Shown piece after piece: positions 5,047 through 57,140 of a stretch of 64,000 nt of DNA (its first letter is position 1; each line of letters opens with the position of its first letter). Both the position numbers and the translations under genes were made by a program. This DNA comes from an uncultured delta proteobacterium (GTDB lineage Bacteria > Desulfobacterota > Syntrophia > Syntrophales > UBA5619), in the NCBI GenBank assembly GCA_963842685.1, contig CAWJHT010000043.1, positions 384 to 64,383 of the forward strand. Direction: 5' to 3'. The notes under the pieces are model-generated. The model saw only the letters and a list, made by a program, of their open reading frames with translations. It was not told where the DNA came from and ran no database searches.

Positions 5047-8194
<3,148 letters not shown>

Positions 8195-13687: not shown

Positions 13688-14683
13688 TTATTTTTTCTGG
13701 CTCTTGATCATTTCGAAGATTCCGGTATCGGTCATGAACTTCTTCATGAAAGCCTGCTCGTCGTGCCAGACCTTCTTGAATTCGGCCGGACCCAGGTAGT
13801 CGACCATCAGGCCGAGATCGGAAATGGCCTTACTGGCTTCCTTGTCATTCATGATATTCTTGAAACCATCCGCCAGGATTTTCTTTGCGTCGGCCGGCGC
13901 TTTCGCCGGCAGACCCAATCCCTGCCAGAGGATGATCTTCACGTCGAAGCCCTTTTCCCTGAAAGTCGGCACGTCTTTGAAGAGCGGGTCTTCGATGCGC
14001 TTGTCGCCGGCGCCTGCCAGGACGCGCAGCTTACCGGCCTTGAACAGCTCCTTGACGTCCAGCGGCGTCTGCACCGTGCAGTCGACATGCCCGCCGAGCA
14101 CGGCCGCGACGGCCTTCGAGCCGCCGTCGAAGGTGACCGGCACCATCTTGAAACCGGCCTGCATGGCGAAGCGCTCGCCGGTGATGTGGGTGGCATTGCC
14201 GATGCCGGTATGGGCGAATTTCACCGAGCCGCTCTTCTTGGCAAAGGCGACGAATTCTTCCAGCGTCTTGTAGGGCGCCTCCGCGTTCACCGCCAAGATA
14301 TAGGGAATGGTTCCCGCCTGGCCGACCGCGTCAAGCACGTCGGGATAATTGACCTGTGTATTGCCGAACAGGGGCTGAGTGACCATGGCATTGTTGGTGA
14401 TTCCGATCGTGTAACCGTCGGCGGGAGAGTTGACCAGCTCCATCAGGCCGATGTTGGACGACCCGCCCGGCTTATTGACGATGACCATGGCCTGCCCGTT
14501 GAAGTACTTCGGCGAGACCTTGGCCACGACGCGGGCGATGAGATCGGAACTCCCGCCCGGCGCATAGGGCACAATCACGGTAATTGGTTTTGAAGGAAAT
14601 TTACCTTTCTGGACATCGCCGGCGAAAACAGATCCCGTACCAGCGACAGCCAAAATCAGACAGCAGACAAACAATCTTTTCAT
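13688..14683 (-). CDS. tctC: tripartite tricarboxylate transporter substrate-binding protein (TctC/Bug family)
   Basis: 331 aa with a signal peptide MKRLFVCCLILAVAGTGSVFA, PITVIVPYAPGGSSD and other Bug-family blocks. GGAGG RBS. Confidence 0.9.
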   Translation of the reverse strand: MKRLFVCCLILAVAGTGSVFAGDVQKGKFPSKPITVIVPYAPGGSSDLIARVVAKVSPKYFNGQAMVIVNKPGGSSNIGLMELVNSPADGYTIGITNNAMVTQPLFGNTQVNYPDVLDAVGQAGTIPYILAVNAEAPYKTLEEFVAFAKKSGSVKFAHTGIGNATHITGERFAMQAGFKMVPVTFDGGSKAVAAVLGGHVDCTVQTPLDVKELFKAGKLRVLAGAGDKRIEDPLFKDVPTFREKGFDVKIILWQGLGLPAKAPADAKKILADGFKNIMNDKEASKAISDLGLMVDYLGPAEFKKVWHDEQAFMKKFMTDTGIFEMIKSQKK

Positions 14684-14732
14684 GTTTCTAACCTCCTATA
14701 GAGTGGTTTCGTTCGCGAACCGGGCTTTGCCT

Positions 14733-16250
14733 TTAGCCCGTGATCCGCCGTTCCCTGAGCGCCTCTCTTAATTTTCCGATCGGGCGCTTCAATGCCATAT
14801 AGGCGATCATCAGCATCGTCAGAACCAGCAGCGTGCCGGCGATGGGCCTGTGAAGCATGGTCAAGAAACTGCCGTCGCATATGGTCAATCCCTGTACAAG
14901 CCCGCTTTCGATGGCCGGCCCGAGAAAAACCCCGATCGCCAAAGGCGCCAGCTCGAATCCGGCGATTTTCAGGAAATAGCCGAGTAACCCGAATCCGAGC
15001 AGCAGACCGAGATCGAAAACGCTGTAGTTGATGGCGTAGGCGCCGGTGAAGGTGATGATGGCGACGATGGGCATAAGGATGTGGAGCGGCACCTTGAGCA
15101 GCGAAGCGAAGACGCCGACCATGGGCAGATTCAGGACCAGCAGCATCAGGTTGGCCACATACATGCTTGCGATCAGGCCCCAGAACAGGTTCGGATTGGA
15201 AGTCATGAGCAGCGGCCCCGGCGAAATGCCGTGTATCATGAATCCGCCCAGTAATATGGCGGCCGAAGAGGAGAAAGGCAGTCCCAGCGACAGGAGCGGA
15301 ATCATCTGCGCTGAACAGGCGCTGTTGTTGGCCGATTCCGGCCCCGCCACGCCTTCTATCGCCCCGTTGCCCCATTCCTCCGGGTACTTGCTGATCCTTT
15401 TCTCGACCGAGTAGGAGACGAAGGTAGAAATCGTCGCGGTCGGACCGGGAACCAGCCCGATAAAAAAACCGAGAAAGCTGCCGCGCAGCATGGGTCCGAT
15501 GGATCGCAGCAGTTCGAGTTTGTTGGGGTACAAATCGCGGAAACGCACCTTGAAGACTACGGAATCCGCCGCCGGCCGGCTCATGGTCTGCAGAACCTCA
15601 CCCAGGCCGAAAATGCCCATGACCACGATAATAAAATCGATGCCGCGTTGAAGTTCGCTGACGTTGAAAGTCAGACGGTTGATTCCCATGATCGGGTCCA
15701 TCCCGATCGTGCCGATCATGACGCCGATGAACACCATCATACCCGAGCGCAGGCTGGATTTCCCGGACAGGTTGGAGAGCACGACCAGGCCAAGCACCAT
15801 CAAGGCAAAAAATTCCGGCGGCCCGAACTTGATCGCCGCGTCGGCCAGTATCGGAGCGAAAAAGGTGAGTCCAATCGTGCCGACGGTGCCTGCCACGAAC
15901 GATCCGATGGCAGCCACCGCGAGCGCGGCTCCGGCCCGCCCTTTCCTGGCCATGGCATAGCCTTCGATGCAGGTGACCACCGAGGCGCCTTCCCCCGGCA
16001 CGTTGACCAGAATGGATGTGGTTGAGCCTCCGTACATCGCGCCGAAATAAATCCCGCAGAACATGATCAGGGCCGACAAGGCGTCCATTCCGAAGCTGAT
16101 CGGCAGGAGCAAGGCAATGCAGCCGGAGATGCCCAGGCCGGGCAGCACTCCCGTCAGCGTCCCGATCACGGCTCCGAGCAGCGCCGCCAGCAGGTTCCAC
16201 GGGGTGATGCTGACCGCGAAACCCTGCATCAGTAGATCAAATGTCGGCAC
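14733..16250 (-). CDS. tctA: tripartite tricarboxylate transporter large permease TctA
   Basis: 505-aa polytopic membrane ORF (GVLPGLGISG.., GGSTTSILVNVPGEGASV..) lying between tctB and tctC. Confidence 0.9.
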   Translation of the reverse strand: MPTFDLLMQGFAVSITPWNLLAALLGAVIGTLTGVLPGLGISGCIALLLPISFGMDALSALIMFCGIYFGAMYGGSTTSILVNVPGEGASVVTCIEGYAMARKGRAGAALAVAAIGSFVAGTVGTIGLTFFAPILADAAIKFGPPEFFALMVLGLVVLSNLSGKSSLRSGMMVFIGVMIGTIGMDPIMGINRLTFNVSELQRGIDFIIVVMGIFGLGEVLQTMSRPAADSVVFKVRFRDLYPNKLELLRSIGPMLRGSFLGFFIGLVPGPTATISTFVSYSVEKRISKYPEEWGNGAIEGVAGPESANNSACSAQMIPLLSLGLPFSSSAAILLGGFMIHGISPGPLLMTSNPNLFWGLIASMYVANLMLLVLNLPMVGVFASLLKVPLHILMPIVAIITFTGAYAINYSVFDLGLLLGFGLLGYFLKIAGFELAPLAIGVFLGPAIESGLVQGLTICDGSFLTMLHRPIAGTLLVLTMLMIAYMALKRPIGKLREALRERRITG

Positions 16251-27124: not shown

Positions 27125-28120
27125 TTACAGTCCCAATACAGCGGCCAGGTTCTTTCCAAAAATAAGGCTCTGCATCTTTTCATCCTGCACGGCGGCCTTC
27201 ACGGAACCGATGGGGTCGGTATCGGCCATGTCATAGGGATAATCCGTTCCCAGGAACACATGGCCGGGAGGCATCAATTCCAGGACAAAACGGAGGGTCT
27301 CCGGCCGGAAAGTGATCGTATCCACGTAGAAGTTCTTAAGGTAATAGGAAAAGGGGTGCCGGCAATGGTCCTGGGCCTCGGGACGCACGGATTGACCGTG
27401 TTCGAGTCGACCGACGAGAAAGGGCAGAACGCCGCCCGCGTGGGAAAGGCATATTTTCAAATTCGGGAAGCGATCCAGCACGCCCCCGAATACCAGATGT
27501 GCCGCCGTGATGGCGGATTCCAGAGGGAGACCCAGGAAATTGGCGAGGTAATAGTTACGGACCCTCTCGATGCCGGCAGGATTGCTGGGATGAATGAATA
27601 GGGGGACGTCCAACTCCTCCACTTTCGCAAAAAAAGGCTGGAAGACCTCTTCGTCAAAGCCGTGACCGTTGACGTTTGAACCCATGACGACTCCCCGCAG
27701 CCCGAGGTTCTGAACCGCGTGAGAAAGCTCCCGGACGGCAAGATCCACATCCTGGAGCGGGACGGTGGCCAATCCGACCCATTGATCGGGGCGCCGCCGC
27801 ACTTCCTTCGCCGTAAATTCGTTGACCATTCGCGATAACTCCGAGGCGGCGGAACTCTCCGTCCAGTAAAAAAACATCGTCTGGGTCGGCTGCAGGACAC
27901 CCATCGTCATTCCCGCCGCGTTCAGATCGGCGATATTCTCATCCAGATCGCTCATCTTGCGATCCCAGTCTCCTCCCTTTTCACGGTTGATTTGCTCGGA
28001 CCGTTCGTTCAGTCCCGAAGGATAGATGTGACTGGATTTCACCGGGTTCAGCTTGCTGCCGGCCGCAATTGCCTCCTGCAACAGGATATGTCGATGACCA
28101 TCGATTGCTTTGACGTCCAT
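27125..28120 (-). CDS. amidohydrolase-2 family protein (ACMSD/LigW-type metal-dependent decarboxylase or hydratase family)
   Basis: Intact 331 aa. N-terminal IDGHRHI (HxH), ..PLFIHPSNP.., ..ICLSHAGG.., ..FLGTDYPY (Asp ligand). Confidence 0.85.
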   Translation of the reverse strand: MDVKAIDGHRHILLQEAIAAGSKLNPVKSSHIYPSGLNERSEQINREKGGDWDRKMSDLDENIADLNAAGMTMGVLQPTQTMFFYWTESSAASELSRMVNEFTAKEVRRRPDQWVGLATVPLQDVDLAVRELSHAVQNLGLRGVVMGSNVNGHGFDEEVFQPFFAKVEELDVPLFIHPSNPAGIERVRNYYLANFLGLPLESAITAAHLVFGGVLDRFPNLKICLSHAGGVLPFLVGRLEHGQSVRPEAQDHCRHPFSYYLKNFYVDTITFRPETLRFVLELMPPGHVFLGTDYPYDMADTDPIGSVKAAVQDEKMQSLIFGKNLAAVLGL

Positions 28121-28263
28121 GGTTTCCCCTTTCGTTTCTTCGTTATCGGATTGCTACATCTATCTATATAATATTAAATGATTATTCATGACAGCGTTAG
28201 GATAAGAAAACCGGTCTCATATGTCAAGCAGATTTTGTCCCCTTGATTTTGTTCCAGGTCGAC

Positions 28264-29226
28264 TCACTCTTCACCCTGGAAAAATCTGTTCCAGGCTTCG
28301 GTCTGTTGCCGACCAATGACCTCGTTAAAGCCATCGAACCATCTCTCAGGGTGCATGTCAGCACCGGCCATCACCGATGCACCTCGGCCGACAATGTTAA
28401 AGTAACGCTTCTGAGCCGCCCGTCCTGCAAGGAGGGGTCCGATGCAGTAAAGCGCAATGGCGAAGCCCATTCTGTGAAGTTCGGCAGGGCTCTTGTAAGG
28501 GGTCTTTGGACTTCCCTCGATCATATTGGCGACAGAAAGAACCGACGAGCCCTTAAACTCATCTGCCGAACGGGTGAGCTGCTCCTCATCTTCAGGTGCC
28601 TCAATGAAGATGATTTTTGCACCTGCCTCAGCGTAAAGAAGACTGCGCCTGACCGCTTCATTGAAACCATGAGCTGCAATGGCATCAGTTCTGGCCATGA
28701 CCATCATGTCTTCCTGGCTCTCAGCAAAGCTGATGGCTGGCCGGAGCCGGAGCTCGATCATCTCCTCCGCAGAAATGAGAACCTTTCCCTTTCCTCTGGG
28801 ACCTTGCATGTGGCCGCAGCTCTTATTGATCGCATACTGATCCTCTATTTGGATGTACTGAGCACCCTGTTTATGGACCTGGCGGCAGGTCAGGACGATT
28901 GAGGATGGTTCATTTCCATATCCGGTATCGATATCCACACCGATTGGAAAAGCAGGTTTCCCCGTATCGAGGGCAGCCATCCAAGTGGCCTGTTCAATAA
29001 TGTCGGTCTGGTGCACGATCTCTGACCGAAGGATGTAACCAAGGTCTGGAAGGCCAAAACTTGCTGCACAAAGATACCCTGAAACGAAGGTAAGGAAGCC
29101 TCCTATATAATCCGGGACCGCATTTTGATCATAAAGTTCATAAACACTATGATGAAGCTGCCGCGCCTCAGCGCCGTTTGCCACACCAATGGCAACAAGA
29201 ATTCGCCCGTCACGTTTCGCTACCAT
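28264..29226 (-). CDS. isocitrate lyase / PEP mutase superfamily enzyme
   Basis: Contains KSCGHMQG (superfamily signature K-[KR]-C-G-H), DIDTGYGN, IQIEDQ and MVMARTDA. Start set at the first in-frame ATG after the ACT-gene stop. Confidence 0.75.
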   Translation of the reverse strand: MVAKRDGRILVAIGVANGAEARQLHHSVYELYDQNAVPDYIGGFLTFVSGYLCAASFGLPDLGYILRSEIVHQTDIIEQATWMAALDTGKPAFPIGVDIDTGYGNEPSSIVLTCRQVHKQGAQYIQIEDQYAINKSCGHMQGPRGKGKVLISAEEMIELRLRPAISFAESQEDMMVMARTDAIAAHGFNEAVRRSLLYAEAGAKIIFIEAPEDEEQLTRSADEFKGSSVLSVANMIEGSPKTPYKSPAELHRMGFAIALYCIGPLLAGRAAQKRYFNIVGRGASVMAGADMHPERWFDGFNEVIGRQQTEAWNRFFQGEE

Positions 29227-29275
29227 CTCGTTTAGGCTCTGCCTCTCAACCTTCCAATTGATAAGCCTTCCATTG

Positions 29276-29680
29276 TTATGCCCCTCCTTTAAGGACCTTT
29301 TCCGCCTCTGCCATCTGATGCGTCCTGAGAACCAGGAAGGCCTTAGATCCATCGGGGTGTGCTGAGGCGTATATGTAGTCGATGTTGATCCCTGCCTTCG
29401 CCAGAGCTGTCGCCATTCTCCCCGTTGCTCCCGGAACATTGTCAAGTTCGACGAGAAAGATTTCTGTCTCAACGACACGAAACCCGTCTTTCTTCAAGGC
29501 CTCCAAGGTCCTCACTTCATCTTCGGCGACGATCCTTAGCACCGCTTCCTCTACCGTATCGATGGCACATATGGCCAGGAGATTGACGGACCGCTCAGAG
29601 ATCAGATTACAGAGCTCGGCAAGTGCTCCAGCCCTGTTTTCGAGAAAGACCGAGTATTGTTTGCACTTCCTAAATTTCAT
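29276..29680 (-). CDS. ACT-domain protein
   Basis: 134 aa with two ACT-like halves (VFLENRAGALAELCNLISERSVNLLAI; LDNVPGATGRMATALAKAGINIDYIYA). AAGGAGG RBS. Confidence 0.75.
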   Translation of the reverse strand: MKFRKCKQYSVFLENRAGALAELCNLISERSVNLLAICAIDTVEEAVLRIVAEDEVRTLEALKKDGFRVVETEIFLVELDNVPGATGRMATALAKAGINIDYIYASAHPDGSKAFLVLRTHQMAEAEKVLKGGA

Positions 29681-30056: not shown

Positions 30057-30085
30057 TTGACAGCATAAGTTATATGGATATAAGT
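30057..30085 (+). promoter_or_regulatory. sigma70-like promoter of the gntR operon with an embedded TTATAT-GG-ATATAA palindrome
   Basis: TTGACA-17 nt-ATAAGT, ~37 nt upstream of ATG 30122. The palindrome at 30070-30083 overlaps the -10. A related TTATATAA occurs at 29891-29898. Confidence 0.5.
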
Positions 30086-30121
30086 TCAACCCGTCTTCAT
30101 TATTCTTAAAGGGTTATCTCC

Positions 30122-30889
30122 ATGAAAACTCTGTTGCCTTTGTATTACCAGATCAAGCATACGATAAGAAATTGGATGCTTAATAAAGAATTTAATCCGG
30201 GTCAAAAGATTCCCTCTACCTACCAACTTGCCAAGACATTTAAGGTTAACCATCTGACGGTTCGACAGGCGATTGACGAATTGGTGCAGGAAGGGTTCTT
30301 AATTAGTAAAAGAGGCTCAGGAACTTTTGTTTCTGATGATGAAAATTTGATCCATAGCCTGAGCATCGAAATTACAGGCTTTATGGATGAGATATTCTAC
30401 GAGATTCAGAAGGCTAAGACAGAATCCGTGGTCATGAATGAAATCCCGGCAACAACAGTTGTAAGAGAAATGTTAGCTCTGTCCCCGGCAGCAGAGACGG
30501 TAATACAGATTAAGCGAGTCCGCTTATTAAGAGGAAAATCATTCAATTATGCAGTTAATTACCTTCCTGTGGAAATCGGATCAAGGGTTATTGAAGAAGA
30601 GCTATATAAAAAACCGTTATTACAAATTCTAGAACAGGATCTTAACATTGAATTTACAAACGCCTATCAAACTATTCAAGCTTCGTTTGCAGATCAGGAA
30701 ATCTCGGAGCATTTGAAGGTGCCCTCTGGATCGCCAACGCTATTTATCGAAAGAATCATGTATACAAAAAAAAACAAACCGATTGAAGTCCTTCATGCCT
30801 GGTATCGAGGCGATTCGTTCAAATATGTTGTTCGATTGGAAAATGTAAGAAAAAAGAATAGAAATACCTGGATCCATCAAGGTGGATGA
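30122..30889 (+). CDS. GntR-family transcriptional regulator (HutC-type, UTRA effector domain)
   Basis: wHTH IPSTYQLAKTFKVNHLTVRQAIDELVQEGFLISKRGSGTFV plus a ~170-aa UTRA-like C-terminal domain. Confidence 0.9.
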   Translation: MKTLLPLYYQIKHTIRNWMLNKEFNPGQKIPSTYQLAKTFKVNHLTVRQAIDELVQEGFLISKRGSGTFVSDDENLIHSLSIEITGFMDEIFYEIQKAKTESVVMNEIPATTVVREMLALSPAAETVIQIKRVRLLRGKSFNYAVNYLPVEIGSRVIEEELYKKPLLQILEQDLNIEFTNAYQTIQASFADQEISEHLKVPSGSPTLFIERIMYTKKNKPIEVLHAWYRGDSFKYVVRLENVRKKNRNTWIHQGG

Positions 30890-30988
30890 TTCTATGAAAT
30901 ACAGAATGTTACAGTGGAATTCAAAAAATCTTCCCGATACTTCCCGGTCGGCCATCCCTTCTGTTCATCGATAAAGGAGGCTTTTAGA

Positions 30989-32245
30989 ATGACTCTATCC
31001 GAGAGAATCCTGGCAGCCCATAGCGGCAAGACAGAAGTGAGTCCCGGTGATTTCGTAAACGTATCCGTAGATCTGGTTTTCGCACAGGAACAAATGACAC
31101 CGCTTGTCGTCGACGCTTTCCGAAAGTTGAAGGTTGGAAGGGTGTTTGATCCCAAGAAGGTCCTTTTCATCAATGACCATTCCTGTCCCAGCATGGACAT
31201 AGATGCCGCTGAGCAGGCAAAAATACAGCGCAGTTTTGCCAGGGAACAGGGTACGTTGTATTTCGGTGTCGGAAGAGGCGGAATAGAACATGTTCTTATT
31301 CCGGAAGAGGGGCTGGCATTGCCAGGCCAGGTGATCGTGGGGGCGGATTCGCATACTGTCACCTCCGGAGCTCTGGGGGCATTTGCAACGGGTTTGGGCT
31401 CAACCGATATTGCCGTGGCGATGGCAACAGGGGAAGTATGGATGAAGGTGCCCCCAACCATAAAATTTATGTACCATGGTAAGTTACCGAAATGGGTGGG
31501 CGGGAAAGACCTGATCTTGTACACAATCGGTGATATCGGCGTGGACGGGGCACTGTATTCAGCGATGGAGTTTGCCGGTGAGGCGATTGGCGAGCTAGGC
31601 ATAGAAGGACGCCTTACCATGGCCAATATGGCGGTTGAGGCTGGCGCAAAGAACGGCATCTTCCCGGTGGATGCAAAGACGATGGAGTATCTCAGACAAC
31701 ACGGAGATAAGTCATTTACAGCATACGATTCCGATGAGAATGCCCAATATGCCAAAGTGATTGAGTATGATGTCAGTAAGATGGAACCCCAGGTAGCCTT
31801 TCCCAGCATTCCCTCCAACGTCAAGCCGATAAGCCAGTCAGGAAATATCAAGCTTGACCAGGTCATGATAGGGGCATGCACCAATGGTCGTTTAAGCGAT
31901 CTCCGTGTTGCTGCAGAAATTTTGAAAGGGAAGCAAGTTCATCATGATCTGCGGTGTATCATCATCCCTGGCTCACAGCGCGTCTACCTGAATGCTCTTG
32001 AAGAGGGGTTGATCGAAACGTTTGTTAAGGCCGGAGCCGCCGTAAGTACGCCTACCTGTGGTCCGTGCGCCGGAATCCATATGGGAGTTCTGGCATCCGG
32101 TGAACGGGGCTTGTCGACAACAAACCGAAATTTTGTTGGTCGGATGGGGAGCCCGAAGTCAGAAGTATATCTGGCCAGTCCTGCCGTGGCCGCGGCAAGC
32201 GCGGTGCTTGGTCGAATTGCATCACCGGAGGAGGTTTTATCATGA
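30989..32245 (+). CDS. aconitase-family dehydratase large subunit (LeuC/HacA/DmdA type)
   Basis: AAGGAGG 8 nt upstream of ATG 30989. GADSHT, CTNGR and CGPCAG Fe-S ligand blocks. ~418 aa. Confidence 0.9.
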   Translation: MTLSERILAAHSGKTEVSPGDFVNVSVDLVFAQEQMTPLVVDAFRKLKVGRVFDPKKVLFINDHSCPSMDIDAAEQAKIQRSFAREQGTLYFGVGRGGIEHVLIPEEGLALPGQVIVGADSHTVTSGALGAFATGLGSTDIAVAMATGEVWMKVPPTIKFMYHGKLPKWVGGKDLILYTIGDIGVDGALYSAMEFAGEAIGELGIEGRLTMANMAVEAGAKNGIFPVDAKTMEYLRQHGDKSFTAYDSDENAQYAKVIEYDVSKMEPQVAFPSIPSNVKPISQSGNIKLDQVMIGACTNGRLSDLRVAAEILKGKQVHHDLRCIIIPGSQRVYLNALEEGLIETFVKAGAAVSTPTCGPCAGIHMGVLASGERGLSTTNRNFVGRMGSPKSEVYLASPAVAAASAVLGRIASPEEVLS

Positions 32246-32772
32246 AACTTAAAGGCAGGGCACACAGGTATGGGGCAGATGTAAACACGGACTTGATCAT
32301 ACCGGCGAGGTATCTGCAAAGCGACGATCATGCGTTGTGGATGGCGCACTGTATGGAGGACATAGACACTGAGTTTGTAAAGAGGATGAAGCCGGGGGAT
32401 TTCATCGTAGCAACTACGAACTTTGGTTGCGGTTCATCACGGGAACAGGCGCCGATAGTCATCAAGGACATTGGCGTTTCCTGTGTCATCGCATCCAGTT
32501 TTGCACGAATTTTCTTCCGCAATGCGATCAACATAGGACTGCCTATTTTGGAATGCCCCGAGGCTGCTGAAGCGACAACGATGGGAGACGAGTTGGCGGT
32601 TGACCTGGTCACTGGTGATATAAGAAACCTGACCAAACAAAAGACTTTTCATGCCAAACCCTACCCGGACTTTATGAGGGGAATCATTGAGAAAGGTGGG
32701 CTGATCGCCTACACCAGTATGCGATTTGAAGAGAAAATAGAATCCCGTAAACAAGATCGGTCATGTGACTAA
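32242..32772 (+). CDS. aconitase-family dehydratase small subunit (LeuD/HacB/DmdB type)
   Basis: ATGA overlap with the large subunit. GADVNTDLIIPARYL and NFGCGSSREQAP. Confidence 0.9.
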   Translation: MKLKGRAHRYGADVNTDLIIPARYLQSDDHALWMAHCMEDIDTEFVKRMKPGDFIVATTNFGCGSSREQAPIVIKDIGVSCVIASSFARIFFRNAINIGLPILECPEAAEATTMGDELAVDLVTGDIRNLTKQKTFHAKPYPDFMRGIIEKGGLIAYTSMRFEEKIESRKQDRSCD

Positions 32773-32825
32773 AGGTTTGACGAAAATATCATCTGTCGAA
32801 GACATTACGTTGATTGGAGGAAGAA

Positions 32826-34004
32826 ATGGAGTTGCTTAAGGGCGTAAAAATAGTGGACCTTACCGCAGCGATAGCAGGCACGCTAGGCACGCTGGTGTTG
32901 GCAGACTTAGGAGCGGATGTCATCAAGATAGAGCCTTTGAAGGGTGAACATTATAGAACCGCCCTGAATGGCGCAATCGTACTTGCCATGAATCGGAACA
33001 AGCGTGGGGTTGCCCTGGACCTTAAAACTAAAGAGGGACAAGATATTGTACTGAACTTGATTAAGAAAGCGGATGTGTTCGTCGAAAACTTTGTCCCCGG
33101 CACGATAGAAAAACTGGGCCTTGGCTACGAGAGGGTTAAGGAAGTCAAGCCCGATATTATCTACTGTTCCGTTTCCGGTTTCGGTCAACACGGTCCTATG
33201 AGTCGAAGACCTTCCTATGATCCTGTGGCCCAGGCGATGGCAGGCATCATGATCGCGACGGGAGAAAAAGACGGTAAGCCATGCAGACAGGTTACATCGC
33301 TCATCGATATGACTGCAGGCCTCTATGGGGCCATAGCGATACTGGCCAGTTTGAACAATCGGCAAATTACGGGACAGGGCCAGAGGCTAGATATATCCAT
33401 GCTGGATACTGCCGTCTCCGCCATGAATTACTTTCTCACTTGGCACTCGCTAACCGGCAACCTGCCAACCCGCCAGGGGTCCGGCACACCGGGATGGACG
33501 CCGTATGAGGCGTTTGATACGAAAGATAAACCGGTATGGATCGGCGTGTCATCCGACAAGTTCTGGCATGCGTTCTGCGAGGCACTTAATTTAGAAGATT
33601 TGGGAAAAGATGGACGTTTTTTGAATGACACGGGTAGACGGGAACACCGCGAGGAACTCGTTGCCAAGGTAGCTGATATCTGCATGCAGTATACAAGCGA
33701 AGAGCTGGATAGAAAGCTCCAAGAGGCCGGTGTACCGGTAGGAATACTATCAACAGTTGCGGAGGTACCCGATAATCCTCAAGTGCAGTTTCGAAACCTT
33801 ATCGATGAGTTTCAGTACCCAGGCAGAGGAAGGGTCAAGACTGTCAAAACGCCTATTATGGTTGAAGGAATGCTTCCGGATGCAAGGATGCAGGCTCCGC
33901 ATATCGGTGAGCACACGGTAGAGATTCTCAAGGAGCACGGATATAGCGACTCAGACATCCGGGGGTTTATCAGTCACGGGATTGTCATGCAACACACGGC
34001 ATGA
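32826..34004 (+). CDS. class III (CaiB/BaiF-family) CoA-transferase
   Basis: GVKIVDLTAAIAGTLGTLVLADLGADVIKIEP, ..NRNKRGVALDLK.., ..FVENFVPG... ATG behind GGAGGAAG (the ORF track starts 12 nt earlier at TTG). Confidence 0.9.
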   Translation: MELLKGVKIVDLTAAIAGTLGTLVLADLGADVIKIEPLKGEHYRTALNGAIVLAMNRNKRGVALDLKTKEGQDIVLNLIKKADVFVENFVPGTIEKLGLGYERVKEVKPDIIYCSVSGFGQHGPMSRRPSYDPVAQAMAGIMIATGEKDGKPCRQVTSLIDMTAGLYGAIAILASLNNRQITGQGQRLDISMLDTAVSAMNYFLTWHSLTGNLPTRQGSGTPGWTPYEAFDTKDKPVWIGVSSDKFWHAFCEALNLEDLGKDGRFLNDTGRREHREELVAKVADICMQYTSEELDRKLQEAGVPVGILSTVAEVPDNPQVQFRNLIDEFQYPGRGRVKTVKTPIMVEGMLPDARMQAPHIGEHTVEILKEHGYSDSDIRGFISHGIVMQHTA

Positions 34005-34019
34005 AAATGGGGGATTCAG

Positions 34020-34958
34020 ATGGCTATGCCGGATAAGATTACAGTCGTCGAAGTGGGACCTCGGGACGGTTTCCAAATGGAACCGAATTTTATTCCGACC
34101 GAGAAGAAGATACAGATCATAGATCAGCTTTCCGAAACCGGCATCAAGAGGATGGAAGTGACCTCTTTTGTCCATCCGAAGGCAGTTCCTCAGCTTGCGG
34201 ATGCTTCTGAAATCATGGCAAGAATTAAGAAAAAACCCGGCGTACGCTATGAGGTGCTCATACCGAATCTTAAAGGCATGGAAAGGGCTCTGAAGTCAGG
34301 CGTTCGTGATATTACACTAGTCGTTTCGGCGAGTGAAACCCACAATCAGAGCAACATGAGAATGTCGGTGGCTGAGTCGCTCAATGACTTTAAGCAGGTT
34401 GTACGGATGGCACATGAAAATGGTGTAAGAGTGACCGGTAGTGTGGCTACGGCTTTCGGGTGCGCCTTCGAAGGGTTGGTGAAGCAGCAGAAAGTTGAGA
34501 GTATCGTGGCGGAATATCTTTCCATGGGTATTCACGAAATTACACTGGCCGATACCACGGGTATGGCGGATCCGCTCGCCGTTAAAGATTTGGTGCAAAA
34601 GACAATGATTCAGCTCAATGGGATACCGTTACGTCTTCATCTTCATAATACCCGGGGACAAGGTTTGGCAAATGTATTGGCTGCAATGCAGGAAGGTGTC
34701 ACCCTTTTCGATGCTTCAATCTGCGGTCTGGGAGGATGTCCTTTTTCTCCAGGGGCGACTGGTAATATACCCACGGCAGACTTGGTAAACATGTTGCATA
34801 GCATGGGTCTTCAGACAAATGTTGATCTTGCAAGACTTATAGAGTGCGAAAAAGACACACAGATCCTGATAGGGCACGATGTTCCAGGCCAGGTGATGAG
34901 AGCCGGTGCGACCCCATGGGCTCTTGAAGTTAAGAATCCAACGAAAAGGAGGAAGTAA
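34020..34958 (+). CDS. HMG-CoA-lyase-like (HMGL family) lyase
   Basis: VEVGPRDGFQ, TSFVHPKAVPQ, LHLHNTRGQG, GLGGCPFSPGATGNIPT. Confidence 0.9.
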   Translation: MAMPDKITVVEVGPRDGFQMEPNFIPTEKKIQIIDQLSETGIKRMEVTSFVHPKAVPQLADASEIMARIKKKPGVRYEVLIPNLKGMERALKSGVRDITLVVSASETHNQSNMRMSVAESLNDFKQVVRMAHENGVRVTGSVATAFGCAFEGLVKQQKVESIVAEYLSMGIHEITLADTTGMADPLAVKDLVQKTMIQLNGIPLRLHLHNTRGQGLANVLAAMQEGVTLFDASICGLGGCPFSPGATGNIPTADLVNMLHSMGLQTNVDLARLIECEKDTQILIGHDVPGQVMRAGATPWALEVKNPTKRRK

Positions 34959-34962
34959 AAAA

Positions 34963-36137
34963 ATGAAAATGCTTCGCTGCGTCATCATGAGAGGTGGAAC
35001 CAGTAAAGGGGTTTATTTTCATGAGAATGAACTTCCCAAGGATCCTGAGCTTCGGGACAAGATTATTCTCGATGTCTTTGGCAGCCCGGATGTCAGAGAG
35101 ATTGACGGGCTTGGCGGCGCGGACGTTCTGACCAGCAAGGTCTGTATCATCGGCCCGTCGAATCGGGAGGATGCGGATGTCGATTATACCTTTGGCCAGG
35201 TAATTGTCGATAAACCCATCGTCGATCATTCTATCAATTGCGGCAATCTATCATCCGGCGTGGGACCCTTTGCCATTGATGAAGGCTTGGTAAAGGCGGT
35301 TGAACCCATGACGAAAGTCAGGATTTATAATACGAACACCAAGAAGGTGTTCATCGCCAATGTTCCGGTAAAAGACGGCAAGGCGGTTGTCGCCGGTGAT
35401 TACCATATCGACGGGGTCCCGGGAACGGGCGCAAAGATCGAGCTTGATTTCGCCGCCACCGCGGGCACGGTCAGGGGCACCCTCCTGCCGACCGGCAAGG
35501 TCAAGGAAACATTGAAGATCGATGAGCTCGGAGAGATCGAGGTCTCCATCGTCGACGCCGCCAACCCGACGATTTTTGCGCATGCCGAGGATATCGGCAT
35601 CAAGGGAACGGAAAGATTCCCGGAACTGATCGCAAATGCCGAGATCTGGCGGAAGGCGGAACTGGTTCGGGGCGCCGCGGCAGAGATGCTGGGATTCGTG
35701 AAAGACGGAGGAATTCATCCGTTGAAAACCCCGCCGCACCCTTCAGTGTCTTCATCTCCCGGGCTTCCGACTATGTAAGTTATTCCGGTAAGGTCGTCAA
35801 GGCAGACACCATTGATTTCAGGGGTATTCTCTGGGCGGCCCGCGAGGTCAGCAAGGCCTATGCCGTGACCGGCACCATCTGCACAGGAGCAGCGGCGATG
35901 ACCGAAGGAACCATCGTAAATGAATTTTTATCGGAAAGATCGCTTAAAGCGGGAGTGGTCAGAATCGGCCATCCCTCCGGAATCATCGAGGTGCAGGTAG
36001 ACGTCAAAAAGGAAGCAGATGAATTCAAACTGAAGAAAGCAATCGTGTACAGAACTGCTCGCAGGATCATGGAGGGGTATGTTTATCTCAAGCCATGGAC
36101 GTTGGGAGAAGACAATGGGCAGATGAGATCGCATTAA
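34963..36137 (+). CDS. PrpF / 3-methylitaconate isomerase (Mii) family isomerase; 1-nt frame break near 35735
   Basis: MRGGTSKGVYF, INCGNLSSGVGPFAIDEG, then after the break FSVFISRASDY..AVTGTICTGAAAMTEGTIV..VRIGHPSGIIEV. The break lies in an A4C4 run. Confidence 0.8.
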
Positions 36138-36309
36138 TGGTGAAATATACGATAAGATTAGCCAGGTTAAGGTAGCGCAAAAAGTCCCGGATGCTTTTCG
36201 ACGATGAGAAAAAAGCGATGATCGAATCAGGGGATGAGACTATGAGGTTTATGTTGATGAGCGGTTAATGATAAACGGGTGAAATTCACAGTTTGGAGGA
36301 AGCACACAG

Positions 36310-38284
36310 ATGTCCGAAAAATCTGAAATTGAAAGAATAGTATCGCTCGGCGAAATTAAGGAAGGCACCGACCTGTCCGCTCAAGAACCGACCCCAAAGA
36401 CCCTACTCAATACGTGCATTCGATGGCTTTCCGTTGTGTTTACGATATACATGTTTTATGCAACGATTGAAGGCCCCTATAAAACGACCATCGTCCACCG
36501 GGCGTTATTTCTGGTCGTCATGCTTTTCATCTTTTTCTCCTCTGAAAATCCGCTGAAAATCGGAAAACAGGGCAAGTACAAAACCCTTGGTAAGGCAATC
36601 GACTGGATCCTGGTCATTGCCAGTGTCGTTTCCCTGGGATACGTGGTTCTGTATTACGATAAAATATTGGGCGCCATGGGTGCAAGCTCATTGAACAACT
36701 GGGAAATTTTTCTAGGGGTGCTCATCGTTATTTGTGTGCTGGAGATGGCCCGGAGAACAAATACCGCCTTCTTCATCCTGGGGGTTCTCGGCGTCGCCTA
36801 TACGATGTTTGGCAATTATCTCCCCGGCATGTTCAATCATCCGGGGATGAGTTTTAAACGCATGATATTCCTCACCTCCTTTACCGAAGAGGGGATCTTC
36901 GGCCTGGGACTTGCGGTTGCTTCGACTTATTTGTTTATGTTTATTCTGTTCGGAGCCGCTTTGGCGGGAACCAGGGCCAGCGTCTATCTCATGGACCTGT
37001 GCAATGGGCTGGTGGGACAAACAGATGGCGGCCCCGCAAAAACCGCGGTCATCGGCAGCGGACTGATGGGGATGGTTTCCGGCAGCTCGATCGCCAACGT
37101 CGTCTCCACCGGTTCGATAACGATCCCGCTCATGAAAAAACTGGGTTTCAAACCGCATATTGCGGCGGCCATCGAGGTTACCGCATCTGAAGGCGGGCAG
37201 CTTATGCCCCCGGTCATGGGAGCGGCAGCCTTTATCATGGCGGAAATCACGGGAATTTCTTACACCACTATCGCGATTGCGGCGATCATTCCGGCATTAC
37301 TCTATTACTTCAATGCCTTTTTCATCGTTCATTTTGAAGCGAAGAAATCCGGCATTAAGGGTATGTCCAAAGCAGATATCCCCGAATGGAAAAAGGTGCT
37401 CGTTGAGAGCTGGCATGTCCTTATCCCGATTCTCGTTCTGTTCTACCTTTTAATGGTCGAGGCGTATACCGCCATGTTTGCCGGATTTATGTGCATTATT
37501 TTGACCATTGGCGCTGCTCAGTTGAGACCGGTCACGAGGATCCCCTTCAGCAAGATAATGGACATCATGGAAAATGGTGTCCGCGACGTTGCCGGCATCA
37601 TGGCAATTCTGGCCGGGCTCGGCTTGATTTCCCAAGCCATTGTCATCACCGGGCTGGGGGCCCGTCTGAGTGAGATTCTCGTTGCGCTCGTCGGCGGCTC
37701 GACCATAGGGATCGTTTTAATAAGCGTCGTCATTACCCTTATCCTGGGGTGCGGTATGCCTACCCCCATCGCTTACGTTCTCGTTGCCATGTTTGTCGGA
37801 CCTGCGATGGTCAATGCAGGTTTCCTCCTTCTGGCAACCCACATGTTCCTGTTCTACTTTGCGATCAAGTCCGGTTCCACGCCCCCGGTGGCGGTGGTTG
37901 CCGCCGTAGGGGCAGGGATCGCCGGCGCCGATTTCTGGAAGACGGCGGTAAAGTCGACGGTATTCAGCCTGGCCTCGTCTCTGATCGCCTTTGGTTTTCT
38001 GTATAATCCCTCACTGCTTCTGATAGGGAATCCCTGGCTTCATCATTGTAGATTCCCTCGCTGCCTTTTTCGGCGCCTATGCGATGGCCGCAACGGTCCA
38101 GGGCTGGTTATTTACCCGTTGCAGCGCGATGGAACGAGTTGCGTTGTTCGTAGGGGCTGTTGTCTTATTGTTCCGGAGATCATTACCGACATTGTCGGGT
38201 GCGGTGATCGTCGGGGTGATCATGTATCTCTCCCACCGCAAGGCCAAAACGGAAAAATTTGCCCAGGCAGCGTTAGCTTTGTAA
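36310..38284 (+). CDS. TRAP transporter fused permease (TAXI-associated 4TM/12TM fusion); frame break near 38035
   Basis: Polytopic ~655 aa. The C-terminus ..GFIIVDSLAAFFGAYAMAATVQGWLF..YLSHRKAKTEKFAQAALAL is recovered in the 38084 ORF frame. Confidence 0.85.
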
Positions 38285-38373
38285 CAAAACCGTGCTTCAT
38301 GTGGCAGGTATGGTGCCGCCGGCGCCAAAAAGTGTAACCTATTAAAAAGAGGATATCGAAAGGAGGGTTTTTT

Positions 38374-39335
38374 ATGAAAAAGGGGAGAAATCTGCTTTGC
38401 GCTCTGCTGGTAAGCTGTCTTGTTCCATCGGTGGCTCTGGCAGCAGCGGTCAATTGGGCCGTGGGAACATCCAGTTCCGGGTCAGGTCCCTATAAATGGG
38501 GTGTGGGTCTGGCCAGTGTGGTCAACAAACATCAAAACGCAGTGAAGATCTCTGCACAGGCTACTGCGGGTTACAATGAGAATTCCGTTTTGGTAGCGGA
38601 GAAGGATATCGTTCTGGGCCTGCAGACTGCCAACGATATCTATACCGCCTATCACCAGATCGGCAAATATGCCAATCAGAAAAAGTATGAAAATCTGAGA
38701 TTTTGTTTCGCTTTGGCCGTAGAACACGGCCATCAGGTGGTGCGGGCCGACTCGAACATCAAAACGATTCCGGATCTCAAAGGAAGGAAATTCAACATCA
38801 ACTCGCCGGCCACCGCCACATCCGAGCGCAATGAAGCTATTTTAGCGGCCTATGGTTTTTCCAAGAAAGATTTCAAGATTTTTGAATTAAGCACCGGCGA
38901 AACGTTCAATGCCTTGAGGGACAAGGTCATCGAAGGAACGTCCAACGGCTACAGCATCGGCCACGCCCCGCTCGTCGACCTCTCCACGAGCATCCCCGTC
39001 AGGCTTCTGGAAATTGGCGAAAAGGAATTTACCAAGTTCAACGCGCTGCAGAACAACACCATGTCCTACGGTGTCATTCCCGGAAAGACCTATAAGGGCC
39101 AGGATACGGATGTCAAGACCTGGGAGGGCTATAGCATCGTATTTACACATAAGGATGCCGATGAGCAGCTGATCTACGAAGTCACGAAGGCATTCTGGAA
39201 GAATTTGAATGAGGCGAAAACCATCGATGCCGGGTTCAGACAACTTTCACCCAGAAGGCCCTGGGGGGCAGATCCGACGTTCCGCTGCATCCCGGTGCGC
39301 AGAGATACTTCAAGGAAGCCGGTTTGCTGAAATAA
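38374..39335 (+). CDS. TAXI-family TRAP transporter solute-binding protein; frame break in a G6 run near 39260
   Basis: Signal peptide plus ..AVGTSSSGSGPYKWGVGLA... The shifted tail ..SDVPLHPGAQRYFKEAGLLK-stop is the typical TAXI C-terminus. Confidence 0.85.
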
Positions 39336-39351
39336 GTAACACCTCCGGGCG

Positions 39352-39699
39352 ATGCCATCCGGCGGGAACATGACGGCGGCAGGGGCCATGCTGGTGGCGA
39401 GCTCTCTGGCGGGCATTTCGTTCGGGAGTTGCCCGGCTCGGCAATGTTCACGCCATGGCCCAGCCACTGGGCGGGTTCTTCGAGGCGGCAATGTAATGTA
39501 CCAAAGGGATCGACTATGGGCATTACCGAGGACCTGGCAACTTTTTCAACCGGATGAGCAAGGCCGACCTGATCGCCAAGTACCGGGACTGTGCAGCCCA
39601 GGTGATGAACCGGGAGCGCATGGACCGCTCCGTGGAGCTGCTCGAGGACTCGACAGGCTCGGCGACATCGGTGAATTGACGGACGTACTGTGCGCATAG
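39352..39699 (+). pseudogene. 3' remnant of an MmgE/PrpD-family gene (only ~110 C-terminal codons, frame-disrupted)
   Basis: GIDYGHYRGPGNFFNRMSKADLIAKYRDCAAQVMNRERMDRSVELLEDL / DRLGDIGELTDVLCA-stop fits the PrpD-family C-terminal pattern (P.G.P.NP.S...L..KF......L.......L...V..LE.L.D..EL). There is no room for the ~340 N-terminal codons. Confidence 0.5.
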
Positions 39700-39768: not shown

Positions 39769-40287
39769 ATGCTATCGGAAATCGAGAAAGAGACGATCTT
39801 GGCCCGCGTTGCAACAAAGGCCGGCGACTACGAGGAAGCTGCCGTCAGTTGCTCGCAGGGCACCTTCGCCGCCCTCCAGGAGGAGTTCAACCTGGGCGGG
39901 GGAACGGAGATGATAAAGGCGGCAACGTTCATGCCGGGAATGGCCAGTCGAAAAGAGACATGCGGGGCAGTGGTAGGGTGCCTCATGGCCCTGGGGCTTA
40001 AATTCGGAAAGGACAAAATCCATGATGCCGCACCCGTGACACCGGACGGAAAAGAAGAGATGCTGAGGTCGCGGCAGAAGGCATGGAGGTTCTGTGAGGA
40101 TTTCAAGAAGGAGTTCGGCAGTACCATGTGCGGCGATATCCGCCCGATCATCATGGGCAGGGATTACGATACCATGGACCCAGCAGAGATGCAGCGGTTC
40201 CTCGACGATGGGGGGCCGAAGAAATGTCGTGTCGTAGCCGAAAAAGCAGCGCGAATCACCGCCTCGATCATCATGGAACGATCATAA
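39769..40287 (+). CDS. C_GCAxxG_C_C family protein
   Basis: 172 aa with CSQGTF.., ETCGAVVGCLMALG, ..CGDI.., ..KKCRVV.. (family Cys pattern). Confidence 0.85.
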   Translation: MLSEIEKETILARVATKAGDYEEAAVSCSQGTFAALQEEFNLGGGTEMIKAATFMPGMASRKETCGAVVGCLMALGLKFGKDKIHDAAPVTPDGKEEMLRSRQKAWRFCEDFKKEFGSTMCGDIRPIIMGRDYDTMDPAEMQRFLDDGGPKKCRVVAEKAARITASIIMERS

Positions 40288-46447: not shown

Positions 46448-47437
46448 CTAGTTCACCTTCAGGCCGATCTCTTTGACTACCGTCGACCACTTCTGCTGCT
46501 CGTCGCGCACAAATTTTCCAAATTCGCTCGGCGTGCGATATACGATTTCGGTGCCAAACGTCCGCATGGAGTTCTGAACGTCCGGCTGCTTGAGAAGCCC
46601 TGACATTACGGTGTTGAGCTTCGCGATCACATCCTTGGGCAGCGCAGCCGGGCCAAGGATGCCGAGCCATAAAGTCGCTTCGTAGCCTTTGACTCCGGCT
46701 TCCGCAATCGTCGGTACGTCGGGCAATTCCGGTGAGCGCTTGGCGCCGGTCACCGCAAGCGCCCGCAGGCGGCCGTCCTTGATGTACTGCAGCATACCCG
46801 CGATCCCCGGGAAACCCACTTTGACCTCCCCGCTCAACAGTTCGGTGGTCGCCTGCGCACTGCCTTTGTACGGAATGTGAAACATATCGATTCCCGCCAT
46901 CGACGAAAACAGTGCGGCGAACAGATGCTGCGAACTGCCGTTGCCGGACGACGCATAGTTGATTTGCCCGGGTTTCTCTTTCGCGAGCGCGATCAGCTCA
47001 CGCACCGATTTCACCGGCAGCGACGGATGCACCACCAGTACGTTCGGCGCTTCGCCGAATTGCAGCACCGGCGCAAAATCGGTGACCGAATCGTAAGAAA
47101 GATTTTTATACAGGCTCGCACTGATGACGTGGGTATTGGAAATCAGCAGCAGCATGTAGCCATCGGGCGTCGCCTTCGCGACAGCCGCGGCGCCAATCGT
47201 TCCGCCCGCGCCGGGACGGTTGTCGACGAACACTTGCTGGCCGAGTGCTTCGGACAGCTTATGCATCAGCATGCGGCCGGGCGCATCGGCCGCGCCCCCG
47301 GGCGAAAACGGCAACACCATGCGAATCGGTCGATTCGGGTAATTCTGGGCCTGGGCGATGGATGGTGAGACAATCGCCAGGGACAACGCTACAATACATG
47401 CGGTTTTGATTCCGGTTAATGCAGATGCTACTTTCAT
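46448..47437 (-). CDS. Bug-family (TctC-like) periplasmic substrate-binding protein, orphan
   Basis: Signal peptide ..LSLAIVSPSIAQA, PIRMVLPFSPGGAAD, YASSGNGSSQHL. GGAGGGG RBS before ATG 47437. Confidence 0.9.
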   Translation of the reverse strand: MKVASALTGIKTACIVALSLAIVSPSIAQAQNYPNRPIRMVLPFSPGGAADAPGRMLMHKLSEALGQQVFVDNRPGAGGTIGAAAVAKATPDGYMLLLISNTHVISASLYKNLSYDSVTDFAPVLQFGEAPNVLVVHPSLPVKSVRELIALAKEKPGQINYASSGNGSSQHLFAALFSSMAGIDMFHIPYKGSAQATTELLSGEVKVGFPGIAGMLQYIKDGRLRALAVTGAKRSPELPDVPTIAEAGVKGYEATLWLGILGPAALPKDVIAKLNTVMSGLLKQPDVQNSMRTFGTEIVYRTPSEFGKFVRDEQQKWSTVVKEIGLKVN

Positions 47438-47529
47438 TTCCCCTCCGTTCATATCATTGCGAACTCGCTTTTGCACGGGATTGAGGATAGGGAAAGCGGT
47501 TTTTTATGTCAAGGAGATTTTAGAGGAAG

Positions 47530-55827: not shown

Positions 55828-55828
<1 letters not shown>
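54958..55828 (-). CDS. trpA: tryptophan synthase alpha chain; one frame break near 55715
   Basis: [33 protein letters not shown].. then ..[42 protein letters not shown] overlap with trpB. Confidence 0.9.
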
Positions 55829-57025
<1,197 letters not shown>

Positions 57026-57077
57026 GAATTCATTTTTCCTTTCCAAAGAGGGCGACTCCGTAAAAAGTCAAAAATTC

Positions 57078-57123: not shown

Positions 57124-57140
57124 ACTTTTTTACGAAGTTG

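Follow-up and report, generated by a model that had tools for sequence, protein, structure and literature searches.

Organisation of the locus

This analysis concerns a 64,000-nucleotide (nt) stretch of DNA from an uncultured delta proteobacterium of the Syntrophales (contig CAWJHT010000043.1 of assembly GCA_963842685.1, hereafter the window), and in particular eight genes on its forward strand between positions 30122 and 39335. These encode a GntR regulator, the two subunits of a LeuCD-type iron-sulphur (Fe-S) hydro-lyase, a class III CoA-transferase, a lyase of the 3-hydroxy-3-methylglutaryl-CoA (HMG-CoA) lyase family (HMGL), a PrpF-family isomerase resembling methylitaconate isomerase (Mii), and both components of a TAXI-type TRAP transporter (Table 1). 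The initial annotation had interpreted this set as a GntR-controlled operon that could encode a complete, undescribed route from itaconate or citraconate to acetyl-CoA and pyruvate. It had the gene content, order, strand and outer coordinates right, and the Pfam and NCBIfam profiles with which the window genes were assigned to families upheld each of its family assignments.

The intergenic gaps are, in gene order, 99, -4, 53, 15, 4, 172 and 89 nt, the negative value reflecting a 4-nt overlap between the LeuC and LeuD genes, and a GGAGG-type ribosome site precedes each of the eight start codons. The start of the LeuC gene is the ATG at 30989, giving the N-terminus MTLSE found in homologues, and the open reading frame (ORF) is extendable to a GTG at 30914.

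Table 1. Features of the operon and its immediate surroundings in the window
Feature	Position	Strand	Evidence
Candidate promoter/operator upstream of regulator gene	30057..30090	+	TTGACA, then AT-rich GTTATAT..box
GntR+UTRA regulator, HutC type	30122..30889	+	PF00392 and PF07702 matches
LeuC-type Fe-S hydro-lyase, large subunit	30989..32245	+	PF00330; TIGR02083 642, cut-off 610.65
LeuD-type small subunit, non-canonical specificity loop	32242..32772	+	TIGR02084 215.9, below cut-off 245.85
Class III CoA-transferase	32826..34004	+	PF02515, full length
HMG-CoA-lyase-family (DRE-TIM) acyl-CoA lyase	34020..34958	+	PF00682; PRK05692 360, cut-off 246
Mii-type PrpF-family isomerase, frame-broken	34963..36137	+	two ORFs matching PrpF profile
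Fused TAXI-type TRAP permease, frame-broken three times near 3' end	36310..38284	+	TIGR02123 543, cut-off 320
TAXI solute-binding protein, frame-broken	38374..39335	+	TIGR02122 183, cut-off 84
Fe-dependent alcohol dehydrogenase remnant	39340..39484	+	tblastn with the Fe-dependent alcohol dehydrogenase of L005
C_GCAxxG_C_C protein, possible accessory gene	39769..40287	+	PF09719 match

The LeuCD-type hydro-lyase

Among solved structures, the LeuC subunit best matches the large subunit of the Methanocaldococcus jannaschii isopropylmalate (IPM)/citramalate isomerase (4NQY, 397 bits), with which its GACTNGR and TCGPCAG motifs align and whose three cysteine ligands for the Fe-S cluster it keeps. The LeuD subunit best matches MJ1277 (3VBA; 168 bits), with HacB behind it at 138. 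Both subunits score the M. jannaschii enzyme ahead of homoaconitase, and LeuC matches aconitase models weakly. LeuC also passes the cut-off of TIGR02083, yet so does DmdA of Eubacterium barkeri (L026, 15245-16501; 726 against 610.65), and hence passing this model is no proof of isopropylmalate isomerase function: the 3-isopropylmalate dehydratase "equivalog" also names non-biosynthetic paralogues. The LeuD loop reads YLQSDDHALW in the window and YLHNDDRALW in the comparison locus L087, where canonical proteins (L089, L093) have YLN[VI]SEP(EEL); tested against the canonical pattern YLN(V/I/T)S(E/D)P, the window LeuD fails, a change that suggests some specialisation of the enzyme. An exact-sequence look-up of this LeuD returned no record.

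The relationship to the biosynthetic enzyme is close. LeuC homologues grade continuously in identity from 95% to 70%, those at 75-79% adjoining a CoA-transferase and a lyase (L087, L091, L092), and those at 72-73% belonging to ilv/leu operons with LeuB and a LeuA- or CimA-type synthase (L089, L093). In a neighbour-joining tree, the window and L087 LeuC clades are sister to a group containing canonical LeuC, and the LeuC of L092 (P0173) falls inside that canonical group despite its catabolic context, the L092 LeuD loop being canonical too. Catabolic LeuCD would thus be a recent offshoot of, or the product of repeated recruitment from, the biosynthetic enzyme. The initial annotation had named firm clustering of this pair with biosynthetic isopropylmalate isomerases, combined with the lack of any other leuCD in the genome, as a result that would count against its proposal; the large subunit does show such kinship, through its 72-73% identity and its TIGR02083 score, whereas the small subunit does not, since it fails TIGR02084 and its loop is changed. 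No leuA, leuB or ilv gene is present in the cluster, in which the neighbours of LeuCD are the GntR regulator and the CoA-transferase. LeuCD of this type acts as citramalate isomerase in the pyruvate pathway to isoleucine, so that this kinship leaves the hypothesis intact and lends plausibility to activity on citraconate and (R)-citramalate. Because the window LeuC is close to leu-operon LeuC accompanied by LeuA/CimA-type synthases, the ancestral LeuCD plausibly handled citraconate and citramalate.

CoA-transferase and lyase

The CoA-transferase covers positions 1-366 of the 366 in PF02515 (394 bits) and reaches no NCBIfam equivalog cut-off, the best score being 270 against the 750 set for succinate-glutarate CoA-transferase. 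Its best match in the PDB is human succinate-hydroxymethylglutarate CoA-transferase (SUGCT, 237 bits). Asp161, within LIDMT, is invariant in all five orthologues compared and is a candidate for the catalytic aspartate, which is Asp169 in Frc. Aligned with 2CW6, the lyase keeps six residues of human HMG-CoA lyase (R41, D42, H233, H235, C266 and N275), and it scores 257-309 bits against HMG-CoA lyase structures, 257 of them against the human enzyme.

Orthologues of both proteins, at 60-65% identity, are encoded adjacently in L087, L091 and L092. A metagenome scan with the window-type CoA-transferase yielded 37 loci in which this protein was at least 56% identical. Where enough sequence was available, HMGL lay directly downstream of the CoA-transferase gene in 17 of 25 loci, and LeuD, as part of LeuCD, directly upstream in 11 of 28; Mii was encoded in few of these loci (L096, L097 and L126). 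The arrangement looks like a funnel, in which the CoA-transferase and lyase core would handle a hydroxy acid, LeuCD would add the matching unsaturated acid, and Mii would add the double-bond isomer of the latter.

Locus L087 has a further peculiarity: between 5131 and 11921, its LeuCD/CoA-transferase/HMGL block is immediately preceded by a divergent second LeuCD pair and by a lyase that shares 44% identity with the dimethylmalate lyase (Dml) of E. barkeri, placing the predicted free-acid and CoA-ester modes of alkylmalate cleavage side by side.

The Mii-type isomerase

The two ORFs of the isomerase cover positions 2-247 and 300-370 of the PrpF profile (PF04303), and the read-through product aligns over 100% of its length with close homologues that are intact 391-residue proteins (89-93% identity). 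Structure comparisons used an intact relative (P0015, 94% identical), which scored 378 bits against E. barkeri Mii (3G7K), 244 against PrpF and 208 against oxalomesaconate isomerase. By these scores the isomerase is Mii-like, and neither PrpF- nor oxalomesaconate-isomerase-like. Lys62 and Cys96 (E. barkeri numbering) are the catalytic residues of Mii, and both are conserved: the LTSK and NCGN motifs align with residues 62 and 96 of 3G7K, and lie 5' of the frameshift in the window gene. The top NCBIfam name, 4-oxalomesaconate tautomerase, was rejected, as the score was below the cut-off, the bit scores of 378 and 208 favour Mii, and no gallate or protocatechuate genes stand alongside the operon.

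A neighbour-joining tree separates the window Mii clade from the E. barkeri nicotinate clade, and no nicotinate-pathway gene, including that for methyleneglutarate mutase, was found near the operon in the window, L005 or L006 neighbourhoods. Outside the Syntrophales group, the nearest isomerase is P0024 (75% identity), whose gene lies directly upstream of those for a dehydrogenase resembling isopropylmalate dehydrogenase (IPMDH) and for LeuCD. An IPMDH-type enzyme requires a secondary alcohol, and therefore the P0024 locus should make a 3-alkylmalate from a mono-substituted maleate. The P0024 product is probably a compound such as citraconate, convertible via 3-methylmalate to 2-oxobutyrate, and not dimethylmaleate, a context that would favour itaconate- or citraconate-type substrates for this Mii clade.

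Mii-type isomerases also stand with an IPMDH-like dehydrogenase and LeuCD at L002 (7877-17217) and L017 (10001-14200), the former cluster additionally encoding ApbA-like, C_GCAxxG and PrpD proteins and DctPQM. This variant suggests a route in which itaconate-type acids are oxidatively decarboxylated to a 2-oxoacid.

Recurrence of the gene set

The operon is present in four Syntrophales relatives (L001, L005, L006 and L096) at 83-89% nucleotide identity. Beyond these, a genome scan with an Mii alignment, taking one genome per species, gave 80 loci, nine of which hold LeuC, LeuD, CoA-transferase and HMGL genes within 10 kb, in at least five gene orders. The nine belong to Acidobacteriota (L012), Peptococcaceae (L019), Tissierellales (L023), Oscillospiraceae (L036), Mediterraneibacter (L039, L040), other Bacillota (L027, L048), and Testudinibacter, a Pasteurellaceae isolate (L064). 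These B-type clusters use another LeuCD lineage, with the LeuD loop SPPxYME and a LeuC 42% identical to that of the window, as well as a different Mii clade, and their CoA-transferases and lyases are 32-49% identical to those of the window. Activators of the PrpR_N/sigma-54 kind are found alongside them, as are MatC/CitMHS or TAXI-TRAP dicarboxylate carriers. At L048 (11182-13143), one 653-residue protein combines LeuC and LeuD in a fusion, and the transporter is of the TAXI-TRAP type, as in the window.

The association of the five genes exceeds chance, and the five-family set seems to have arisen by assembly on more than one occasion. Nothing speaks more strongly for a single pathway made up of these five enzymes than this independent assembly. 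At L096, a 2-oxoacid:ferredoxin oxidoreductase is encoded immediately upstream of LeuCD, a position that fits a 2-oxoacid product such as pyruvate; a DctPQM transporter and a PrpD/MmgE protein are also encoded there.

Two arrangements at these loci were noted separately. In the closest relative (L001, 300-7760; 89% nucleotide identity), three copies of a DDE_5 transposase gene surround the cluster, one of them between the LeuD and CoA-transferase genes, the regulator is truncated, and the transporter genes are fragmented. At L019 (8278-9989) and L036 (11124-12859), genes for a protein of 230-240 residues and a GGGtGRT-family protein (PF14057) adjoin that for Mii.

Proposed pathway and alternatives

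These features are best read as an operon, induced by its substrate, for the catabolism of a branched unsaturated C5 dicarboxylate; itaconate, citraconate or both are the likeliest candidates, and we assign this reading a probability of roughly 0.5. The TAXI-TRAP system would import the acid. The Mii-type isomerase would then produce citraconate by moving the exocyclic double bond of itaconate, and the Fe-S hydro-lyase would hydrate citraconate to (R)-citramalate. The CoA-transferase would convert the latter to (R)-citramalyl-CoA at the expense of succinyl-CoA or acetyl-CoA, and the HMGL-family lyase would cleave the thioester to acetyl-CoA and pyruvate, with the HutC-type GntR protein repressing the operon until its effector binds. 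Were acetyl-CoA the donor, citramalate would yield acetate and pyruvate with no ATP cost. E. barkeri Mii is reported to turn itaconate slowly into citraconate, and in Chloroflexus aurantiacus two adjacent genes reportedly encode an (R)-citramalyl-CoA lyase of the HMGL family and a class III CoA-transferase that passes CoA from succinyl-CoA to (R)-citramalate.

The general logic of the scheme, from a 2-alkylidene-succinate through 2-alkylmaleate, 2-alkylmalate and CoA ester to acyl-CoA and a 2-oxoacid, is considerably firmer and in our judgement quite probably correct. The substrates, products, stereochemistry, CoA donor and regulator effector are those predicted from the enzyme families, and the sequence alone would also be compatible with other 2-alkylidene-succinates or 2-alkylmaleates. 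A broader proposal can be put forward only tentatively: that the combination of Mii, LeuCD, CoA-transferase and HMGL-type lyase constitutes an oxygen-independent, ATP-neutral route for itaconate or citraconate, assembled at least twice and spread across anaerobes and host-associated bacteria. The carriers of such a route might then include Syntrophales, gut Oscillospiraceae, Mediterraneibacter and a Pasteurellaceae isolate.

Several points weigh against the itaconate/citraconate interpretation. No transcript data were found for the operon, nor is any RNA run listed. The best relatives of the CoA-transferase and lyase are SUGCT and annotated HMG-CoA lyases, so a route through HMG is possible, and many orthologous pairs occur without LeuCD and Mii, such that the core may act on some imported hydroxy acid. 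The altered LeuD loop could mean a different, more polar substrate, and the neighbour-joining tree did not give a clean split of catabolic and biosynthetic LeuC clades, P0173 grouping with the canonical proteins. Finally, three genes of this copy are frame-broken.

Four other explanations bear on the same evidence. An unlikely one, though the most probable of the four, retains the chemistry and changes the substrate to a higher or differently substituted 2-alkylidene-succinate or 2-alkylmaleate, cleaved ultimately to an acyl-CoA and a 2-oxoacid: 3-methylitaconate or dimethylmaleate would give propionyl-CoA and pyruvate, and ethyl- or isopropyl-maleates would give acetyl-CoA and 2-oxobutyrate or 2-oxoisovalerate. 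The only Mii known to have been characterised prefers 3-methylitaconate, LeuC shares 52-62% identity with its LeuC-like counterparts in nicotinate-type clusters (E. barkeri DmdA and Moorella L011), the LeuD loop is non-canonical, and L087 joins the module to a second LeuCD and a Dml-like lyase. However, the window Mii clade stands apart from the nicotinate clade, methyleneglutarate mutase and other nicotinate-pathway genes are missing from the neighbourhood, the P0024 isomerase is coupled to an IPMDH-like enzyme that should be unable to oxidise the tertiary alcohol of dimethylmalate, and such acids have fewer sources in the environment than itaconate. An improbable alternative is that the core functions like mammalian SUGCT and HMG-CoA lyase (HMGCL), activating hydroxymethylglutarate (HMG) to HMG-CoA and splitting it into acetoacetate and acetyl-CoA, with LeuCD and Mii acting on another substrate or coupled only loosely. 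The best solved relatives of both proteins, the complete HMGL catalytic set, and the many orthologous pairs that have a TRAP transporter but no LeuCD are all as this would predict. Yet the LeuD gene lies 53 nt upstream of the CoA-transferase gene in the same operon, an adjacency repeated across the metagenome loci (11 of 28). Furthermore, it is established enzymology that aconitase-family enzymes use alpha-hydroxy acids, of which HMG is not one, no leucine- or isovalerate-catabolic genes are nearby, and scores on SUGCT-type and other NCBIfam equivalogs remain far under their cut-offs (as with 270 against 750).

It is very improbable that the pathway is one for tricarboxylates, in which trans-aconitate or a related acid would pass through cis-aconitate, citrate and citryl-CoA to acetyl-CoA and oxaloacetate. 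PrpF-family enzymes isomerise aconitates, the B-type clusters come with CitMHS/MatC carriers and with PrpR_N sigma-54 activators, the latter a regulator type that senses 2-methylcitrate, and TctA and TctC genes occur elsewhere in the window; but the isomerase is clearly Mii-like and not PrpF-like, the arginine of the HacB loop is glutamine in the window LeuD, with no sign of binding to an extra carboxylate, LeuC matches aconitase models weakly, and citryl-CoA lyases are normally of the CitE type and not the HMGL type. The least probable explanation of all is that LeuCD is merely the cell's biosynthetic isopropylmalate isomerase, located beside unrelated genes that make up no dedicated pathway. 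This draws on the TIGR02083 score of LeuC and its identity to leu-operon LeuC, the first of which is not diagnostic, given that E. barkeri DmdA passes too. Against it also stand the lack of leuA, leuB and ilv genes in the cluster, the sub-threshold LeuD with its altered loop, the position of LeuCD under a GntR regulator with a dedicated transporter, and the wide recurrence of LeuCD/CoA-transferase/lyase adjacency from two LeuCD lineages.

Relation to known systems

Itaconate is an antimicrobial of macrophages and a major fungal product, and citraconate and mesaconate are immunomodulators. To our knowledge, the only established bacterial route for itaconate degradation is that of Ict, Ich and the (S)-citramalyl-CoA lyase (Ccl/RipC). 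The itaconate/citraconate pathway proposed here would share its starting compound, its acetyl-CoA and pyruvate products, and its use of a CoA-transferase. It would differ in isomerising and hydrating the free acid before CoA activation, in employing an Fe-S hydro-lyase in place of a MaoC-type hydratase, and in employing an HMGL-type, presumably R-specific lyase in place of the S-specific CitE/HpcH type. Neither the MaoC nor the HpcH_HpaI (CitE/HpcH) family is represented among the eight operon genes or their immediate neighbours.

The nicotinate module of E. barkeri (Mii-DmdAB-Dml) likewise has a Mii-type isomerase feeding a LeuCD-type Fe-S hydratase. The window isomerase, compared through P0015, is about 51% identical to the genomic copy of Mii there, and the LeuCD-like pair of E. 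barkeri shares 52% (LeuC) and 57% (LeuD) identity with the window subunits. In contrast to the free-acid Dml of E. barkeri, which is of the isocitrate lyase (ICL) family, C-C cleavage in the window would proceed via a CoA ester and an HMGL-family lyase; the window also lacks methyleneglutarate mutase and nicotinate genes, and its Mii belongs to a separate clade. The resemblance to Sct (Caur_2266) and Ccl (Caur_2265) of C. aurantiacus lies in gene arrangement, both having adjacent genes for a class III CoA-transferase and an HMGL-family lyase (separated by 15 nt in the window), whereas no LeuCD, Mii or transporter is reported alongside the Chloroflexus genes. We know of no other described pair that activates and cleaves (R)-citramalate.

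The citramalate pathway of isoleucine biosynthesis (CimA, LeuCD, LeuB) employs the same LeuCD subfamily and the intermediates citraconate and (R)-citramalate, but the window pathway is proposed to be catabolic, running from citraconate to citramalate with the pull of CoA activation and cleavage, and its LeuD loop is changed and its context not biosynthetic. Mammalian SUGCT and HMG-CoA lyase are the best solved-structure relatives of the core (237 and 257 bits), yet the relationship is distant, with scores far below equivalog cut-offs, and LeuCD and Mii, to which the window pair is coupled, have no role in HMG metabolism. E. coli YbhH, of the PrpF family, is among the PDB matches of the isomerase (216 bits). 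The E. coli ybhH-ybhI-ybhJ genes presumably bring together a PrpF-family isomerase, a transporter and an aconitase-family hydratase, and serve here as a lead only; unlike the window operon, that cluster is not known to include a CoA-transferase or lyase, and its hydratase is a long single-chain aconitase-like protein.

Full-text searches of the literature library available found no description of the proposed route. All of the enzyme families and individual reaction types are known, such that it is their combination, and the order of steps on the free acid, that would be new. If the proposal is correct, then a new pathway has been built of familiar enzymes, and would be the first by which strict anaerobes dissimilate itaconate instead of only reducing it. 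Itaconate-fermenting bacteria are not known, and reduction to methylsuccinate seems to be its main anaerobic fate (PMC12290011, 2025). The proposal would further suggest a physiological role for (R)-citramalate CoA-transferase/lyase pairs of the Chloroflexus Sct/Ccl type, and would account for hundreds of probably misnamed "LeuCD", "PrpF" and "HMG-CoA lyase" annotations in the genomes of anaerobes. It is directly testable, as a B-type cluster is present in at least one isolate in culture, Testudinibacter sp. TR-2022 strain BK221 (L064).

Frame-breaking indels

Five frame-breaking indels, which the initial annotation did not mention, are distributed across the isomerase, permease and TAXI genes. 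A 1-nt deletion near 35705 (GGACCGG in relatives, GACGG here) splits the isomerase gene into ORFs at 34906-35778 and 35865-36137. The permease gene has changes of +1 near 38037, -1 near 38160 and +1 near 38196, and the TAXI gene a 1-nt deletion near 39251. The TAXI protein's restored C-terminus is ...PLHPGAQRYFKEAGLLK, and position 39335, which the initial annotation gave as the end of the operon, is the stop codon of the restored frame. With three genes broken, the route proposed there as complete is not so in this copy as sequenced. The whole operon is intact on the contigs of two Syntrophales metagenome-assembled genomes (L005, from GCA_054640935.1, and L006). The gene for an Fe-dependent alcohol dehydrogenase that lies 3' of the TAXI gene in L005 is reduced here to a 145-nt remnant, from which tblastn recovered only residues 227-275, and L001 has a similar remnant.

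These breaks are probably errors of sequence or assembly, with decay the less likely, though still credible, cause. Error is the likelier because in high-GC stretches of the window the reading frames of housekeeping genes are disrupted as well, for example those of trp genes (55-60 kb) and of a histidine kinase (6.9-8.6 kb), and because the permease gene has its +1, -1 and +1 changes within 160 nt, a pattern that looks like consensus error. Counting against an artefact is the local concentration of the lesions, since reading frames are clean in operon genes one to five and in several genes of mid GC content (TctA, TctC, Amt, DHDPS-family and Amidohydro_2). Among public sequencing runs, none was close to the window, the maximum word share being 0.09.

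The GC content is 70-76% at 1-10 kb and 64-69% at 55-62 kb, compared with 45-60% elsewhere in the window. Within these stretches (1000-10000 and 55000-62000), the Pfam domains of single genes are spread over overlapping ORFs in different frames, those so split including trpA, trpF, trpD and the genes for the histidine kinase and for ABC permeases and ATPase. Such splitting suggests either that indel errors are numerous or that the segment is of chimeric or foreign origin.

Regulation, transport and neighbouring genes

The regulator combines a GntR winged helix-turn-helix domain (PF00392, residues 7-70) with a UTRA domain (PF07702, residues 97-234), and is 81% identical to its counterpart in L005. 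The element upstream of its gene is kept in L005 and L006 as TTGACA..AGTTATATAGATATATAGATAAC, the kept box having the alternative rendering TTGACA..GTTATATAGATATATAGATAAC, and this candidate may act as an operator. A generic scan for promoter and terminator consensus sequences gave counts no higher than in shuffled controls. The Rfam scan of the whole window gave zero matches, and hence no riboswitch in the 172-nt gap 5' of the permease gene.

The permease match to TIGR02123 ends at residue 577. The two components that characterise a TAXI-TRAP system, a fused permease of the DctQM type and a TAXI binding protein, are both present, each encoded by a frame-broken gene in the window. The PDB relatives of the TAXI protein are distant, at 127 bits or below, and uninformative on its ligand. 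Tripartite tricarboxylate transporter genes for TctC and TctA occur at 13688-16250, with a second TctC at 46448-47476, and the organism seems rich in systems for the uptake of organic acids.

Divergent from the operon, on the reverse strand at 27125-29478, are the gene for an Amidohydro_2 protein and that for a lyase of the ICL/phosphoenolpyruvate-mutase family. This lyase carries a KSCGH motif, shares 34% identity with the dimethylmalate lyase of E. barkeri, and reaches only 142 bits against PrpB; the two genes are not kept next to the operon in L005 and L006, and their link to it is uncertain. Downstream of the operon, the C_GCAxxG_C_C "putative redox-active" protein (39769-40287) recurs in L001 (14829-15347), L002 (15109-15624) and L096 (19116-19667), often beside a PrpD/MmgE protein.

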